Assembly (NCBI RefSeq): GCF_018977255.1
Contig: NW_024704745.1
Location: forward strand, 22,568,001 to 22,632,000
Origin: Callorhinchus milii
Taxonomy: Eukaryota
DNA length: 64,000 bases
Direction: 5' to 3'
The position numbers were made by a program, and so were the translations under genes. The notes under the pieces were generated by a model that worked only from the letters and a program-made list of their open reading frames with translations, did not search any database and had not been told where the DNA came from. This document shows, one piece after another, positions 5,364 to 24,948 of the stretch (position 1 is the stretch's first letter; every line of letters begins with the position of its first letter).

Positions 5364-6575
5364 CTATAAAAAAGAAAAACAAGTAAATAGATGAAAAATC
5401 TAAAGCCCTGATTTTAAGAATCAAATAGTTAGATGTACAATGCATTATAAAACCATATTCTCCCAACAGGTAAATCAAAAATAAAGAGTGGGTTTCCTTT
5501 AAGAGGCTAAATTTGCAATCAATTATATTTTAACAACTTACTAACTAAACACTGAAATCTTCTTAGTGCAACCCTACAGATAGCTTCAGCATATATATTC
5601 AACACTAAGAATAATGCTATTCTTGGGTAGAAAACAAGTTATCATACATTACACTTGCACCACTTAATTACTGCAAATACTACAAATCTTTTTCATCTCC
5701 AAATAACAATCTGCTCCAAATCTTAGTAAAAGATAGTACACTCTCGATCTAGGATTGAGCCTAACCATGAATTTCAGAACCATTCAGTTAAATTCAATAT
5801 TGATCCCGATTTGAGACCATATCTGCTGAAGTAATCAGAAGTCAAAAGCTCCATCAAGTGAGAATATAAAAGAAATTCAGATAAGGTAGCCCTTCAGCCC
5901 ATAGATCCTTGTTCTCACTTTCAAATCCTTTCACTGTCTTGCCTACCCTACCTTTGTGGCATCCTTCAACCCTACCAACCCAACTGCTGCCTGCACTACG
6001 CAAGCATCAACCCGTTTCATGTCCCCCTCCTTGTCACCCCACCCTTGGTAGGCAAGCTTTAACCATTCTAACGCACTCTCTGGAACTCCATCCCAGAGTC
6101 CCTCTGACTCCCTCCCTCACCTCATTCCAACAACAACAAGAATACATTTGTATAGCGCCTTTCATGTCGGGAGGATGTCCCAAAACCCTGGACAGTGTAC
6201 AGCATTTTAGACCCGAGCTGTGGTCGGGGGGGGGGAAGGGAGGGGAAGTGGGGTGACCAACGGCAAGTCAGTTTCAAGAGGTACCTCTCTGACTCCACTT
6301 TCGGTTGTCTTTCCCCCTTTCAACTTCCACCCCCAGCAGTATTAATATATCAACATATCCTCCTCCTGACCTTTATAAATATAAAAGGCACTATATAAAT
6401 ATAAATTGTGTTGTATTTAAGAACACACAACTAGCATTACTTCACATGATTTGAGTTAATGGGTGGTGGGGGGGGTGAATGGTACAATTAAGATTTATCG
6501 CATCAAATGTTTCTGCTTTGCATTTGTCAGGGATCCACATTAACATTCCTATATGGGTGAAAGTAAGATCTTTAC

Positions 6576-6698
6576 CTTTGAAGACACAATTCTGTTGTCA
6601 GGATATCTTTGAGGTATGTAAGCATCAGTGCCTTGAGGGGGCTCACGATGTCCAATATAAACTGTGCGATTATCCACCCAGTTCTCTTCACCAGAACA
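6576..6698 (-). CDS. ATP11A: ATP11A coding exon 2 ([41 protein letters not shown])
   Basis: 123 nt flanked by ttttccatttgctttcag| and |gtaaag. The translation is nearly identical to the ATP11A N-terminus ([41 protein letters not shown]), which distinguishes it from ATP11B/C. Confidence 0.96.
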
Positions 6699-6899
6699 CT
6701 GAAAGCAAATGGAAAATAAATGTAGTCAGCAACATCAAATAAAACAACAACTTGCATTTATATAGCGGCATTCGCACAGGGCAGGGTCTTGGGGGTGCTT
6801 AAATACAAGATTGGTGAAGAGATTACTCAACACGTTATAACTTTTTAAATGTCAGAATTTAGAAGTTGCCCTACATCAAGACTTTAAACTCATATTGTC

Positions 6900-7240
6900 T
6901 TGGCTGACACTCCAGTGCAATGCTGGAAGTGTGCTACATTGCTATCGGTGCCCTCCTTCAGATGAGACTTTAAAACCATCTGCCCGTTCAAGTGGATGTT
7001 AAAAAAAATGCCAGACACAATTCAAAAAGAGAAAGGAATATCTTCCGGGATCCTGGCCAACAATATCCCAAATAAAATTGGTCATTTGCTTCATGGTCAT
7101 TTGACGGATTTTACTGTGCACAAATTGGTTGCCCCGTTAGACTACAAATAAACGATCAGTATACTTTACAGTAAATCATGTGAAGTGCTTTCAGATGTCC
7201 TTCCAACATGAAAGGCACTATATCAAATGCAAGGTTCATT
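6900..7240 (+). mobile_element. Older Deu-domain SINE (SacSINE1/AmnSINE-like); related copies near 28490-28870 (-), 33460-33690 (-), 42560-42905 (-) and 62045-62300 (+)
   Basis: Contains gctgacactccagtgca...ttcagatgagactttaaaacc...gtggatgttaaa...tcctggccaac...ctgtgcacaaattggttgcc, then an L2-like tail. Confidence 0.65.
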
Positions 7241-8639
7241 TTAAATTTTGTTACTATAGTATGAAACACTAATGATAATTAAACATCCTGACTTTTAGCA
7301 ACCATTTGACACTCGTCTGACTGAATATCCTTAGCCGAATATGAGGAAGAGAAAATCAACCCGGATTTTTGGCCCTAAATGCTAACAATGACACCTGCTC
7401 AGAAAGTATTTTTAGGTCAGCCAGGTGTCTGACATGGACAAAAATACAAATGTGAATGCCAGACGGGGACAGGATTGGGCTCAGCTGCAAAATCCTCCAT
7501 GTTCAAACAGCCTGCCTACACTCACCACTCTGGTTCACATATTAAGAAGCCTCACAAACCAGACTTTGAACTCATTCGGGGGTGGGAGGAAAAGAGAGGA
7601 AGAACAGAGAAACCCTACATTGTCAGAGGTGCCGTGTTTCGCATTTGAAGTTAAACCAACATCCCACCTACCAGTTTCAAGTGGACATTAAAGATCTCAT
7701 GACAATATTCATAGACAGAAGGGAGATTCCCTTGGTATCGTGGCCAACAATTCATATTTAAAAATAAATCAAGTGAATGAGTTGAAAATAAACTACAAAT
7801 GTTGATTCCCATTATTCAATGCAATTTCAGTGCTTGCCGGTACGTGTGCATGTGGCAATGGGTCAAGACGCATTGAACTGCGAGAAATGTAGTTTTGACC
7901 TATCATCGCATGCACATTTACGGGCTGCATTGAATTATGCATGCACAGTGTAGATTGTTGATTAACTCAGACTTTAAATGCCTTATATTGTTTATCTACA
8001 ACTTGAATTTCATGCAAATCATATTAAATCCTATGGTCCCAACTGATATGACTTACATGAGTTTTACTGTATAAGACACTATACCAAATGCAAAGATTAC
8101 TATGAAAATGGAGAAAGATCTTTGGAGCCGCATCTATGAATCTACGCCTCAGCAATTTGTAGGAGAAAAGGAGAGCAAATGAGCAAAGATAAGCTTATTT
8201 CCCATTCTCTTCACCCCTCCTACATCTTTTCACTCTATTTGATACATTTAGCAGCATTAAATACAGCCACAAAACAGGGTGTAATGGTATAGGGACTTGC
8301 GTCTTTTCATTGAATCCTTCCAAGATTATTTTGTGCTTAACTGAAGTGTTATTTCGATAGAATCCCTTCATCATCTTTGGAAGTTATGTTTACTGCTCAG
8401 TACAAAGGAAATAAGCTGCCAGTTTCTGGGAATAATAATTAGTTTAAATTACTGCATCTATTCACCTCAAATTTAATTTAGATAATTCACTGCTTCTGAA
8501 AGACCAGACAGAACCTACTCAAGTTCTCTCTCATTGCTATTACACAGCAAATAACATTCTCGTGATGATGGATCTGGAACTCAATTACAGTACCACAGCC
8601 ATGACTTTGGGACTGCTCACAATGTCCTAAACCAAGACT

Positions 8640-19003: not shown

Positions 19004-19141
19004 ATCCCAGCAGCACCCCATCTCTCTTAACTTCAACCACACTCCTCTGTTCATTGAGGCCTCCTGCACATCCCCTATTACCTCTGGGTAAGGAGAGGAA
19101 CCGGGACCGATAGTAATTGAATGTTAATTTCAATTGGCACT

Positions 19142-20973
19142 ATGGCCCCGGGAAATAATGCTGGTTGTGACTGGGCTGTGAACTTTGAAAGGAAGCTCAT
19201 TAGAATGGTTCAGAAGTTGAAGTTGGGGGCGAACGATGAGAATATTCCGCAGCCAAGTGACGCTACAGGGCATAAGCCTTTAGTAGGAGAAATCGAGGAG
19301 TTAGGCACTCAGCGGAGGTTGAGTGATAGCAAGAAGAAGGTTTTGTTGAAATACTGGGCTGTCGTGAGTTGCCAACATACAGAAGAAGAAAGACGCATAT
19401 GGCAGGAGGAGAAAAAACGTAAACAGGAAAGATTTCAGAAGGATCTGGAAGAAGCGAGAGAGCAGGCAGCAAAGTACAAGGCGGACTTCTACGCTCAGCA
19501 AGAGCGCGGGAAGTTAGAGCAAAGGGACTTAGAACGTGCGAATAAAGACATGACTGAGAGATATACCACCCTGCAGGGAATTTATAACCATCAAGGCGCT
19601 ATTTTAAATCTAACAGTTGTTAAATCTCAAGAGGTCGAAGAGCTTAAGGAAAAACGGTTGCGAGATAAGGAAATGATTGCCGGGTTGAGACAGGAAAATG
19701 ATGATTTGAGGGGAGCCCTGCGCTACCAAGAAATAGGTAGGCAGGAGCGAGCGGAGTTAGAAGTGTTAAGGAAGAGAAAAGAGGGAGAGAAGGAAGGTAA
19801 CGAATGGAGACAAGCGTTAGTAGCGGCGATATGTGACATTAAGCCTGTGATGAATGGGGTTTGTCAGGATGCCGATGATAATAATGTAGATTGGGGAGTG
19901 TTGGATGAAGAGGCAGTGCAGTACAATGAGAATGAAGGATCAGGGCCACCCCTAGTAAAGGATCGTGTTTGTCCGGTCAGCACTTCACAGCGTACCAATG
20001 CAAATGGGAATGCTGGGGGCCGGGACAAAATTGTCACCTCCCTGAGCCCGGAAGATGTGGTCGCGTATTGTTCTCAGCTGGGGCCCAAATTAACTCAAGG
20101 AACCCCATGGCAACCCTGGATAATGAAATGGGATACTTGGAAAGAGGATAACGCTGACTTAACTCCCGCCGACTATGCTAGGACACTTAAGGCAATGTTA
20201 AGCTCGGATCTCCGAGGGGCTTTAGACCCTCGTACGATCCCAGGCGGAGTCGTTACCCTGGCCAATTTACAGGATTTCGAGGCAGAGGTGAGGCGAGAGC
20301 TGGCTGTCCACTCCAACCCCCTTGAAGATTTGGCCTCATGTAAGCAGGGGCAAATGAAAATCCCCTGGCTTTTCATCTCAGACTGTGGCAGCTAGATTCG
20401 GCTAATCAGGAAAATGCCATGAATCGGCAACAATGCGAGAATTCTGTTAATTATAAAAAATGCTGGTTAGGAAAATTGAATCAGAATACCTCTGCTGCTA
20501 TGGGGTTAGGCATAGATCGCGCCTCCCTTTTTCATCAACTGATGGGAACAGCCACTAGGTGTCACGGGGCTATTCAGAAAACTATTAAGAGTGAAAAGAC
20601 AGAATCTGTGTGGCAGGTGGAGGGGCAAGAGCCGTGGAGACCACTGAATAATGGTCCGAGCTGAGGACAGCCCCGAAATCAGGGACCCCGAGATAGTTCA
20701 AGGGATACATGCTATACCTGTGGTAGACAGGGCCATTGGGCTCCGGACTGTCCAACAGGGCGCAGACCCCGCGCACAGAGAGAGTAGAGCTTTTATGCTG
20801 ACCCCAGACTTGATCAAGAGCAGCAAAGCTATGAGCAATGGGAGAGGAACCTGGAGCGAAAGTTAACCCGTTCATTAACCCAAGAAATCTTGACTCAGCT
20901 AGGCCATAATCAGGGACGTGGAGGTGGCTCTGTATCGGTTATAGTCGAGGGGAACCGAGCATGCCCTCAGTGA
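19142..20973 (+). pseudogene. gag: gag of the LTR element (coiled-coil N-terminus, capsid MHR, CCHC nucleocapsid)
   Basis: Open from actATGg (19142) to about 20350, including a long E/K/R/Q-rich coiled-coil-like stretch. Restoring 1 nt in the G run at 20347-20350 gives the MHR-like CKQGANENPLAFHLRL. The zinc knuckle CYTCGRQGHWAPDC (CX2CX4HX4C) is at 20710-20751. Internal stops lie at 20662 and about 20785, and the terminal TGA is at 20971-20973. Confidence 0.88.
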
Positions 20974-21582
20974 CGTGTTTCGGTCCCACACCCTGATGCT
21001 GGCCAAGTGAACAATCCGTTGTGTGTCCCCTTTAAGAAATACGAGGGACCGAGGCCGTTTATATCCATGAAGGTGTGCGGGACCATCCATGCTATTTTGG
21101 TAGATTCAGGCTCTACAGCCACCCTGCTTAATTTCGACAACCAACCCCTTCCTCCCCTAACAGGTGAATGTTTGGAATTTTCTGGTGTGTCTGGTAGCCC
21201 TATGTATGGTCAAGTGTTGCGTCCTTTGCCTGTACAATTGACTTGTAAAGCAACGATTGTTTTAAAACAGCCAATTGCTGTAAATTTAACCACTGAACCT
21301 GGTATCCTCGGTAGCAATGAACTAACCTCGCGTAACGCTCTGCTCGACTATACTAATCATTGTTTATGGTTAGATCAACATCCTGGTCAGGGTCGGTTTC
21401 GTGAAATATTAGATCAGCATGCTGTGTGCGCTATTAAAAAGCCCACCCCATACCCTCCAGTTCAGTCAAATCACCCCTGGATTGGTCCATTATTATCCCA
21501 GTTTCCAGGTCTCCTAGCCACTCACAAACACAACTGTGGGAGGATGGCAGTAACTGAAGAGGTTAATGGTCCCACCCACTAG
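20974..21582 (+). pseudogene. pro: Retroviral-type aspartic protease region of pol
   Basis: Contains the active-site motif AILVDSGSTATLL, the flap-like FSGVSG and GILGSNEL (GILGxD/N). It is in the same frame as the gag C-terminus. Confidence 0.9.
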
Positions 21583-22420
21583 CCCTGTAAACAATACCTT
21601 TTGCCTAAAGAAAGTTTACCTTATGTCCAAGCCACAATTGAGAGTTTAAAGGAACAAGGTGTGATTCGTGAAGGGATATTTCACCTTTTAGCCGTGTGTT
21701 GGGCAGTCACCTCCTTTCAATACATCACTGGACTCCAGAAGATTATTCTTCACTCTCCGCACACCCCAGTTCGTCTCCTGCAACGACCGGACAATACGCT
21801 CGTCTCCTCGCAAAGACTCACTAAATGGGCTCTCACTCTGGCTGCTGCTGATTTATCGGTTGTTACTGGTCCGACTACCCTCATTCCCCAGATGATGTTG
21901 TATGACGGTGACCCTCATACATGCCCTCTTCCGTGCTTGAACTTCAGCGATACTGGAATCCTTAAGTCCCCGCTGGAGACTTCCCCGGTGCAGTCTGTTG
22001 CCAATGTGTACATTGATGGCTCCTCCTTCCATGTTGATGGCAAGGCATTCACTGTTTTTTTTCGTTATCCTCCGTGATCGTGATATTGGTTTCCGCTGCA
22101 TACCACATTCTGCTCAATATGCTGAGTAGGCTCCACTCATTGAAGTGGTGCGCCAAACTGCCAAAGTGGCTACCAACATATGGTCCGACAGCGCTTATGT
22201 TGTAAATACTGTGTTACTACTACCTTTGTACTCTTCCCGAAATTTTTGTACCTCTGCAGGAAAGGCGTTGGTTCACGCATCACTTCTGAGATGTCTGGCT
22301 GATGAGATATTCTGTCGCACCCATCCGATGTATATTGGTAAGGTGGCAGGTCATTAAAAGACTGGACCACACTCACACGGGAACAATTGTGCTGATGTCG
22401 TTGCTCGCCAGTCCGCTCTT
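21583..22420 (+). pseudogene. pol: pol: RT N-terminal stub fused to the tether (degenerate RNase H), then a retroviral-type RNase H
   Basis: The RT start PCKQYLLPKESLPYVQATIESLKEQGVIREG jumps directly to the tether HLLAVCWAVTSFQYITGLQKIILHSPHTPVRLL...SSQRLTKWALTL, with no YxDD motif. RNase H motifs follow: VYIDGSS, HSAQYAE, IWSDSAYV, KVAGH and GNNCADVVAR. Confidence 0.85.
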
Positions 22421-22689
22421 GATGGAGAAGCATGGATTTCTTCCCCTCTTCCGTCCCACTCAGTGATGAGTATCTCAACTTCGTCCTCTTTGACTGATTT
22501 GATTAAACTCCAGAATTCATACCCGCCTTACATCAAAGCCATGCACTGGCACTAGGAGAACTTGCTGGACTTGATATCCATCCCGAGCCACAATATGATT
22601 GGCTAGTGCACACCCATTTGTATGTTCCTCTGGACTCTCTGGACTCCCCTGTTCTCATGTATTCTAAGCATGATATTTCCACTGTGTGT

Positions 22690-23798
22690 ATTCCCCCAGA
22701 TTGTGCTGATGCGATGTTTCAGTTATACCACTCACATCCTACTGGTGGTCACTTTGTTCCTCAAAAACCATCACTAAGTTGTTGCGCTCTGTCTGGTGGC
22801 CTGGTTTGTCTCATGACGTTCGGGAACGATGTAAGACGTGCCTTGTGTGCCTTCAGCCCAATCCCCCTCGATCTACTAATCGAGCGTTATTGTAAAGTGC
22901 ACCCTCTCCCACGGGTCCTTGGACCAACATTCAGATCGATTTTATTGGGCCATGGTCCACTGCTGCCGGTGGTTACAAATACTGTTTAGTCATTATTGAT
23001 AAGTTTACAAAATGGATTGAAGCTTTCCCAACTAAAAATAACACAGCGCTCACTGCTGCACGCATTTTATTGCGTGAGGTGATCTGCAGGTTGGGAATCC
23101 CTGGTATATTGGATAGTGATCAGGGATCACATTTCACGGGCGAAGTTTTTACCAAATTAATGGACTTGCTGGAAATTGATCACAAATTGCATGTGTCATA
23201 CTATCCTCAATCCTCAGGGGTAGTAGAAAGAAGCACATTAAAGGTTTTGTTGTCAAAATTTTGTGCAGATCACCCCACGCAATGGATGAAGGGATTGCCA
23301 CTGTGTCTAATGGCAATTCGTTCCACCCCACATGCTACTACTGGCATTTCACCCTATCAAGCGATGACAGGTTGTTTAATGAGGCTACCAGGTTGTACAG
23401 TAGTGATGACTGAACAAGCCCTCGAACAATTAGAGGGTAATGTTAAATTGCAGGGAACTGCGGAGGAGTCATGGCTGAAAGAGATGCTAAAGATCATACA
23501 GGAAACCAACAGGTTCGTGGCTACAAACACTGGTAAGGCGAAACAAAGTATGAAGCAACAATTTGACACTACTGTTAACCATGTGGAGTATGAAATTGGA
23601 GATGAAGTCATGGTCCGCGTGTATGGGAAAAAGGAATCTCCTTTTGCCCCGTGATGGAAAAGGCCTTTTGAAATTTTGGAAAAGGCAAGCCCGGCAGTAT
23701 ATTTAATTGCCATGCCTTTGTCTTCTAAATTGACTAAATGGTACCATGTGAATCAACTCAAAACTGTAAAGAAGGGAAAAGGATAAACTGACGACTGA
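22690..23798 (+). pseudogene. int: Integrase (HHCC, DDE core, C-terminal GPY/F-like module), frameshifted
   Basis: Motifs are YHSHPTGGHF...CKTCLVC, GPWTNIQIDFIGP, IIDKFTKWIEAFP, LDSDQGSHF, YYPQSSGVVER, IRSTPHATTGISPY and YEIGDEVMVR...P*WKRPFEI...WYHVNQLK. Confidence 0.93.
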
Positions 23799-23861
23799 AT
23801 ATATGCTACATTTGTATTTTGCAGGCACCAACCGAGTGATTACCTTATCTTCTGCATCAAT

Positions 23862-24029
23862 ATGGATCTGGATGGAATTACTGGAGGCCTGGTGCTTGGC
23901 GTTGTAATACTACTAATCCAGAACTCCCATGTTTACTCCCATGATAACCCCTTTGATGGAAACCCCCATAATACTTTCTTATTAACAGCTTATAGATATG
24001 CACAAAATAATCAGGTGTCTAGTTGTTAA
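23862..24029 (+). pseudogene. Truncated env-like ORF (55 aa: signal peptide plus start of SU)
   Basis: Translates as MDLDGITGGLVLGVVILLIQNSHVYSHDNPFDGNPHNTFLLTAYRYAQNNQVSSC*. It is preceded by the acceptor tttgtattttgcag (23811-23824) just after the IN stop and has a hydrophobic leader. It is too short to appear in the ORF track. Confidence 0.6.
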
Positions 24030-24113
24030 CCTTGTTTTATTTTTCTGACTTTGTATTATATTCTTTTTGTAGTTTTGTGATACCTCATGTTCATTTGGTA
24101 TCAAGGTGGGGAC

Positions 24114-24948
24114 TGTTAGAATTTACACTTTTTGTATAATGTTAGAATCATAATAGATGTTGCGAACGGGTTAACTTTTGAGTTAAGTGTGGGGGGGCAA
24201 CTAAACTGACAGTCATGGGATAGGACTCATCTGTTTTTCTCTGTTTTTGAAAAAATAACGGACAGGGGCAGGGGGTCCCTCTTATCAGTAAATGACAACA
24301 AGCCCACAGAGGTAACGGTCCAAGGTACCAGTCGATACAGGATCTCGACTGAGCAATAAGTCGCTAGATTCTGACAGGGCCTGCCAACCAACAGAAAGCA
24401 ACCCTCAAGAATAGCAATTAATGAGCAAGTACCAAGACCTTGGTACCATCCCGGGATACTGATAAGGAATAACCAGTCACTTAAAAGGAATGTACTAAAG
24501 ATCCCACACCACAAAATAATGAACACCAGATACAGCCCTAAACTGATCAATTCTCTATCTTAGACAATTAAGGACAATGTGTATGTGTGCTGAGGCACGT
24601 ACGCCCCATGAGGTGTTCACGTGAACCCAGCATGATTTTGGCCAGGCGACCTAATGTCCGCACCATGATTGGATGGACACAAGCTTAAGACACCGTGCCA
24701 GACCAAGATCAGCGCACGCCCAGGACAGTACCTATCGTGGATGGAAGACTGAGAGCTAGAAGTCAGAAGTAGACGACCACGAGGAGGGATTACGCGGTAG
24801 TATTGTTCTGTTAGTGAATTGATTGATTGTGCTTACTTGCCCACGCCCATCGGGAACTTGGACGGATCCTGGAGTTTAATAAACACCACTCTGGTTGCAA
24901 TCAGTGGCTGTGTTTGATTGGAACTCGAAAGGGTTTTTTTTCTTAACA
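24114..24948 (+). mobile_element. 3' LTR (835 bp) with polypurine tract
   Basis: The PPT aaggtgggga (24103-24112) precedes TGTTAGAA, and the LTR ends in TTCTTAACA (imperfect terminal inverted repeat, TG...CA). It contains an inverted CCAAT (24668), a TATA-like CTTAAGA (24684) and AATAAA at 24878-24883. Confidence 0.85.

Follow-up and report, generated by a model that had tools for sequence, protein, structure and literature searches.

A 55-codon open reading frame as the probable remnant of a gamma-type env in a defective CmiERV lineage I copy of Callorhinchus milii

The published family and the closest described systems

Lineage I of the CmiERV elements was described by Han (Han 2015; PMC4422223), in a study that required a downstream Env homologue and in which lineage I clustered with SnRV; the study gives no typing of env and no description of splicing. 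As far as the accessible text of the sources goes, a gamma-type env of class I is paired with pol of class III type in two other elements, namely XtERV-S (PMC8278194) and ERV-SA.a-Ppe (Chen 2021, bioRxiv 2021.11.23.469661); according to the accessible parts of the latter source, recombination between env and pol is frequent among fish and amphibian ERVs, and its S1 Data include ERVs of six cartilaginous fish. Subscription papers, or the supplements of Chen 2021, may already type the env of the family treated here. For lokiretroviruses, the accessible parts of the survey (PMC7947760) record one Chimaeriformes genome screened, with no lokiretroviruses in it.

The window, i.e., the whole 64,000-nt stretch of C. 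milii DNA that was analysed, contains an element that, judged by its sequence, is a copy of CmiERV lineage I and thus already known. The element CmiERV_Scaffold 2 (lineage I, in the part of Dataset 1 of Han 2015 that we compared) is near-identical by eye to L031, a two-LTR copy of the family, over both LTRs, the gag gene and the greater part of pol, while the two differ somewhat near the end of the integrase (IN) and the start of env; the LTR distance of L031 is 0.031 in our hands vs 0.033 as published (Han 2015). In the same part of Dataset 1, CmiERV_Scaffold 2 contains the splice acceptor and env stub of the window, and then the whole env span. By eye, the family agrees with the published lineage in LTR, PBS (primer binding site), gag, pol, acceptor and env start, and L031 appears to be the published scaffold-2 element; the window copy lacks the 5′ LTR, the reverse transcriptase (RT) core and most of env.

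The first-pass annotation of the window had proposed a loki-like pol joined to a gamma-type env, and hence a new recombinant retroviral type. The novelty does not hold, since the pairing of a non-class-I pol with a gamma-type env is already known (XtERV-S; Chen 2021). In the accessible description, XtERV-S shares with the family a tRNA-Ser PBS, a CxxC near the N-terminus of SU, and an env no longer than about 450 aa; it differs in being ERV-L-like, with a dUTPase, YIDD and a 5-bp target duplication, whereas the family has YVDD, a CCHC knuckle and a 4-bp duplication. A search for dUTPase in the family copies gave no match. Lokiretroviruses and the family have in common the gag-pol-env order, a tether plus RNase H, and a similar IN, but the family has an RT outside the loki clade, PQG instead of PFG, and a gamma-type instead of an F-like env. 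Had a gamma-type env been joined to a loki pol, this would have borne on the env type of the first retroviruses, a question that the accessible parts of the loki paper (PMC7947760) leave open; such a pairing was not found here. The remaining value lies in what would be a further instance, among fish, of a gamma-type env passing from one pol lineage to a distant one, and in a small case of repeated env loss (five ways) within one family. The additions to the published account are modest: presumed-RNA contigs that join at the acceptor, a class I pol beneath the closest env in this genome, and the five types of env deletion.

The window element, its acceptor and the env stub

All features of the element lie on the forward (+) strand. 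The element is cut at 19070, where its blastn match to full copies starts: a leader remnant (19070-19141) is present, lacking the 5′ LTR, the PBS and the leader splice donor, and blastn found no LTR match upstream of 19070 within the window. The gag gene (19142-20970) has a frameshift near 20350, and the gag of siblings includes a CCHC zinc knuckle (zf-CCHC in L031, E 8.8e-07). The N-terminal half of gag (19400-19800) is a long charged, coiled-coil-like stretch, in which a repeat of ~25 residues occurs once in the window copy and twice in siblings. The protease and the first part of RT follow (20974-21681; RVP, E 0.004), and at 21681 the RT core has lost about 0.94 kb (the gap corresponds to 4276-5215 of L031 and 4335-5272 of L035). 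Tether, RNase H and IN, with stops and frameshifts, occupy 21682-23786 (PF17917, PF00075, PF17921, PF00665), and between RNase H and IN there is a candidate internal splice donor, GTATGT (22620-22625), which is suggested by a joint on L031 (see below). The polypurine tract (PPT; 24103-24113) precedes the 3′ LTR just as it does in siblings, and the 3′ LTR (24114-24948, TG...CA) is 91-93% identical to both LTRs of L031 and L035. Identity of the window copy to L031 is 91-95%. Having no promoter-bearing 5′ LTR, no PBS and no RT core, the copy is likely dead and its stub non-functional.

The IN frame ends with TAA at 23784-23786, and a second in-frame stop follows at 23796-23798. The acceptor motif, tttgtattttgcAG, is present at 23811-23824 (+), as had been annotated: it starts 25 nt and its AG ends (at 23824) 38 nt downstream of the IN stop, so that the annotated distance of 13 nt applies only when counted from the second stop. 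Together with a CTGAC branch-point-like site (23788-23792), it makes up a putative env splice acceptor spanning 23788-23824, identified from sequence, conservation and contig starts. By a crude pyrimidine score this site ranks fifth among 327 AG sites in the element and is thus not distinctive alone, so the case for it rests on position, conservation and RNA. Its 52-nt context is kept with at most five mismatches in 9 of 12 loci.

The first ATG 3′ of the acceptor, at 23862, has A at -3 and G at +4, and opens a frame of 55 codons (23862-24029), supported by the genome search, the siblings and hydropathy. It comprises a predicted signal peptide (about residues 1-26) and the start of SU up to the first Cys of a CxxC, and ends SSC before the stop codon at 24027-24029. 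The signal-peptide-like core that had been noted is strongly hydrophobic (Kyte-Doolittle peak of 3.27 over 11 residues, 9-19), and the frame ends 74 nt before the PPT (start at ~24103), close to the earlier estimate of about 75 nt. A Pfam search of the stub alone matched no env family. Searched against the genome, the stub peptide gave 17 matches, each of them next to an IN of the CmiERV lineage I family, and the sibling frame continues into CYVC; the frame is therefore not a chance one. A deletion junction at 24022-24029, with a short shared stretch of ~5 nt, marks the loss of ~1.24 kb of env (7573 to 8817 on L031), and the same junction is found in L002. The 55-codon frame is, on this comparison with its siblings, the 5′ remnant of a gamma-type env. 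We are confident in the overall reading, i.e., a remnant of a gamma-type env, with ~1.24 kb deleted, in a defective copy of CmiERV lineage I whose RT is not that of a lokiretrovirus.

Env in the sibling copies and probable use of the acceptor

The genome search for the IN-env region returned 15 copies at 87% or more (40 of 55 candidates were scored). Four of these retain the span of 1.45-1.52 kb from acceptor to PPT, ten are deleted in five ways, and in the remaining one other pol sequence breaks into the region. Siblings with the whole env span, which the annotation had suggested seeking, are present, though with broken frames: none of the 15 has an unbroken env, and the longest stretches in a single frame measure 239-286 aa. 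Such single-frame pieces overlap and run from the stub through CYVC, SU, NKR|S, a fusion peptide, the immunosuppressive domain (ISD) and CX6CC to a predicted membrane anchor, about 450 codons in all. In L003, L010 and other copies the stub frame continues into CYVC (a CxxC), while the window copy stops at its first Cys, just as had been proposed for the stub. The furin site, NKR|S, is present in all four full-span copies and is minimal, not the canonical R-X-K/R-R; an ISD of the LQNRMALD type followed by CX6CC lies in one frame in three of the four, L006 being partly deleted there. The predicted membrane anchor is a hydrophobic C-terminal stretch in the full-span copies, and the signal peptide is predicted from hydropathy. 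All four landmarks sought in the sibling env (CxxC, furin site, ISD, CX6CC) were thus found.

Domain searches agree with the annotated gamma-type, as against an F-like, character of this env. TLV_coat was matched by three of four env pieces in Pfam (E 2e-11 to 1.5e-10), and fusion glycoprotein F0 (PF00523) by none of the four at E up to 0.1. The 57 PDB matches of env comprise filovirus GP2, syncytins, and the TM of ASLV, MLV and HTLV (alpha, gamma, delta), and no paramyxovirus or pneumovirus F is among them. All 20 env homologues in the protein database carry PF00429, and the named ones are from sharks, sturgeon and hagfish. The N-terminal SU motif to which the annotation had likened the stub, N-[TS]-[FYW]...CWVC/CYVC, is seen in 6 of the 20; many of the remaining homologues are N-terminally incomplete fragments. 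The gamma-type Envs of sharks, sturgeon and hagfish (P0121-P0135), together with three env loci elsewhere in the C. milii genome (L051-L053), have the same N-terminal motif, ISD and CX6CC at 42-54% identity. One hagfish protein (P0133) matches at 49% over half of the query and has the same N-terminal env motif. For the SU piece, ESM Atlas returned ERV Env clusters at 0.96 with low recognition, which is weak support.

Contigs of four sequencing runs, presumed to be RNA, were mapped on L031. A joint from 6154 to 7371, with a short side of 29 letters and GT..AG ends after a one-base shift, was found in two of the four runs, both from one study; it corresponds to a junction from window site 22620, between RNase H and IN, to the acceptor at 23824. 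The candidate donor site, GTATGT, is kept in 10 of the 12 loci examined (9 by a scripted cut-off). In addition, contigs in X1, X2 and X5 (three studies; three of the four runs, presumed RNA) begin at 7371-7373, which is the exon edge, and one X5 contig spans env; among 65 genomic matches of the IN-env region, none begins at the acceptor. The acceptor is therefore likely used for splicing, as the annotation of a spliced env supposed; this applies to copies of the family, not to the window locus itself. No joint from the leader donor is among the 15 joints listed out of 28. The donor inside pol appears to join the env acceptor; for an RNA of this kind to be translated into Env, a start codon further upstream or another splice would be required.

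In the ancestral virus, splicing probably joined RNA from the 5′ LTR to the acceptor at 23824, and translation would have begun at the ATG at 23862 and given a precursor of ~450 residues. As suggested by its motifs and by analogy with gamma-type Envs, the precursor would be secreted by means of the signal peptide and cut at the K-R furin site, and a disulfide from the CxxC of SU to the CX6CC of TM would hold SU and TM together. Env was then deleted repeatedly, with env-less copies likely continuing to spread in the germ line. Such spread is suggested by two observations: a single deletion junction is common to the window copy and L002/L035, although these are inserted at different sites, and LTR pairs are closer in two env-deleted copies (0.018 and 0.020) than in two full-span copies (0.031 and 0.036), four values in total. 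One further LTR distance, 0.22 in L049, was discarded as an indel artefact, and L034, L036-L039 and L041 yielded no distance.

The stub might instead be a secreted peptide, kept for a host or viral role. It has an open frame and a signal-like leader, and L002, with the same deletion, differs at one residue of the 54 searched; however, the 96% DNA identity between the two copies explains this likeness. Moreover, the peptide ends with the first Cys and so includes nothing of the receptor-binding or fusion parts, the cut lies at four different places in other copies, some of which have stops in the stub frame, and the window copy has no 5′ LTR. We consider a kept peptide highly improbable and retain the reading of the stub as an env remnant.

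Full copies elsewhere have LTRs of 510-830 nt, with 4-bp target duplications in three of the four two-LTR copies read, and in all six loci scanned the sequence of the PBS corresponds to the 3′ end of tRNA-Ser(AGA) genes of the host. In the leader of L031 there is a GTAAGT donor (1143-1150) just 3′ of the PBS, and an acceptor-like site further on (1215-1231); tandem repeats in the leader (1660-1720 in L035) vary in number between copies. The region G000:C1:120.05-120.11 Mb (L014, L043, L050) holds nested ERV and LINE pieces with several env fragments, including an older copy of the family that is interrupted in env by another related pol. Short non-autonomous derivatives (L036-L042) consist of LTR, leader, 3′ UTR and LTR, lacking gag, pol and env, and their LTR starts are 1.3-1.6 kb apart; this form has many genomic matches, and a joint from 1543 to 8733 on L031 occurs in all four runs (presumed RNA).

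Placement of the pol lineage and probable origin of its env

The window copy has no RT core, so RT was read from siblings. The family RT has LPQGFHNSP and YVDD, with PQG in all three copies read; in the portion of the supplement of PMC7947760 that we compared, all 24 lokiretroviral RTs read PFG there, and all 15 retroviruses read PQG. Three quick RT trees were built without foamy and class II rows and from subsets of the matches (53 of 120 in one; 40 of 150 representatives plus 22 earlier rows in the largest), the SnRV row (P0011) and the loki rows (P0014, P0015, P0019) being anchored by eye. Rows labelled class III are presumed to be such from their motifs. The family falls outside the loki clade in all three trees. 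In the 63-row tree, lokiretroviruses (99) and the retrovirus side (99) are separated with the family inside the latter, in a 10-row clade (98) with frog and coelacanth pol, and SnRV groups with class I (95). A clade of the family, its relatives and lokiretroviruses is rejected (p-AU 0.022). Two pol-like sequences with a changed RT active site, from ostrich (P0010) and kiwi (P0303), fall near the family lineage and resemble the description of OVEX1.

The IN gives a different picture by score: the family IN matches loki IN at 211 and 192 bits, while SnRV IN is outside the 45 best matches, i.e., below 134 bits. In the IN trees (41 of 95 matches used as rows, none of them CGIN1), the best trees do not join the family with lokiretroviruses, and the AU test does not reject such a clade (p 0.057); a clade of the family with SnRV, whose IN is a long branch, is rejected (p 0.0007). 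These scores likely explain the loki premise of the first-pass annotation, since the window has no RT core and only RNase H and IN are visible there, the IN being loki-like by score. The element also has a tether plus RNase H (Pfam), which is common to all retroviruses and hence not diagnostic of lokiretroviruses.

A lokiretrovirus whose F-like env was replaced by a gamma-type env would accord with the higher IN scores, the IN clade at p 0.057, the dual RNase H and the RT identity of 43% to loki. However, that identity compares with 61% among loki RTs themselves and with 42% to SnRV, the dual RNase H is shared by all retroviruses, and the accessible survey data show no loki in the one chimaera genome screened; with PQG against PFG in 24 of 24, the position outside loki in three RT trees and the p-AU of 0.022, we give this origin hardly any credence. 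The motif, the trees and the AU test all place the family RT among retroviruses proper, and a lokiretroviral pol is not supported.

Similar to SnRV, the family has shared RT motifs at 42% RT identity, but the two are not sisters in our RT trees and their IN clade is rejected; the sister relation reported by Han 2015 is thus absent from these quick trees, in which sampling is incomplete. If the lineage were separate from SnRV and a three-way mosaic, with its RT retroviral, its integrase from the loki/CGIN1 group and its gamma-type env from class I, this would fit the IN bit scores, the contrast between p 0.0007 for SnRV and p 0.057 for loki, the separate RT clade at 98 and the recurrent IN replacement noted in the accessible parts of PMC7947760. 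Against it, the best IN trees do not join the family with lokiretroviruses, the SnRV IN is a long branch, and the likeness may reflect ancestral sequence retained on short branches; we think such a mosaic unlikely. Equally doubtful, in our estimation, is the fuller proposal of a deep, as yet unnamed lineage apart from SnRV, made up of CmiERV lineage I with its relatives from frog and coelacanth: a three-way mosaic of this kind, with a loki/CGIN1-type integrase, whose env was acquired from class I fish retroviruses and exchanged behind a fixed acceptor (the sister subfamily described below has a different ORF there), with a second env splice from the donor in pol. The place of this pol lineage near the base of the retrovirus tree merits careful phylogeny.

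Within the genome, the closest TM outside the family belongs to L051-L053 (49-52%), and the N-terminal motif is present in these as well; two of them, L052 and L053, are on class I pol with an RT 35% alike to that of the family, and L051 has only a class I-like IN fragment. The TM of the family is 52% identical to that of L052 (RT 35%), vs 41% between L052 and L062, which are both class I (RT 46%). The TM tree (146 columns; 17 of 20 env matches used) groups the family with L051-L053 at 85-88, unstarred. In a sister subfamily (L069-L072; RT 70% alike), an unrelated ORF lies behind the same acceptor position in all four copies read (L044 oriented 6078-6326; G000:C4:37533549, C8:668038, C13:59967 and C52:313320). 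It has ~80-110 codons, with a signal-like leader, a short spacer, a hydrophobic stretch and a basic tail; ESM Atlas gave no match at 0.9 or more, and no full env was found in the subfamily.

A closest TM on class I pol, and a sister subfamily with a different ORF at the acceptor, make an old exchange of env likely. A gamma-type env that was ancestral in the pol lineage would need no swap, and the weakly resolved TM tree leaves room for it, as does the finding of Chen 2021, in its accessible parts, of only the gamma type, of two types screened, in fish and amphibian ERVs; the class I pol of the closest env in the genome and the unrelated ORF in four of four sister copies speak against it, and we hold it to be the less probable course. 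The env of the family probably goes back to an ancient exchange, in one direction or the other, with retroviruses of class I (epsilon-like). Of the env swap proposed in the annotation, an old exchange in the past of the lineage thus stands as likely, but not one onto a loki pol. At least three other gamma-type env families are present on class I pol in this genome (L054-L068), some with env frames of 530-680 codons.
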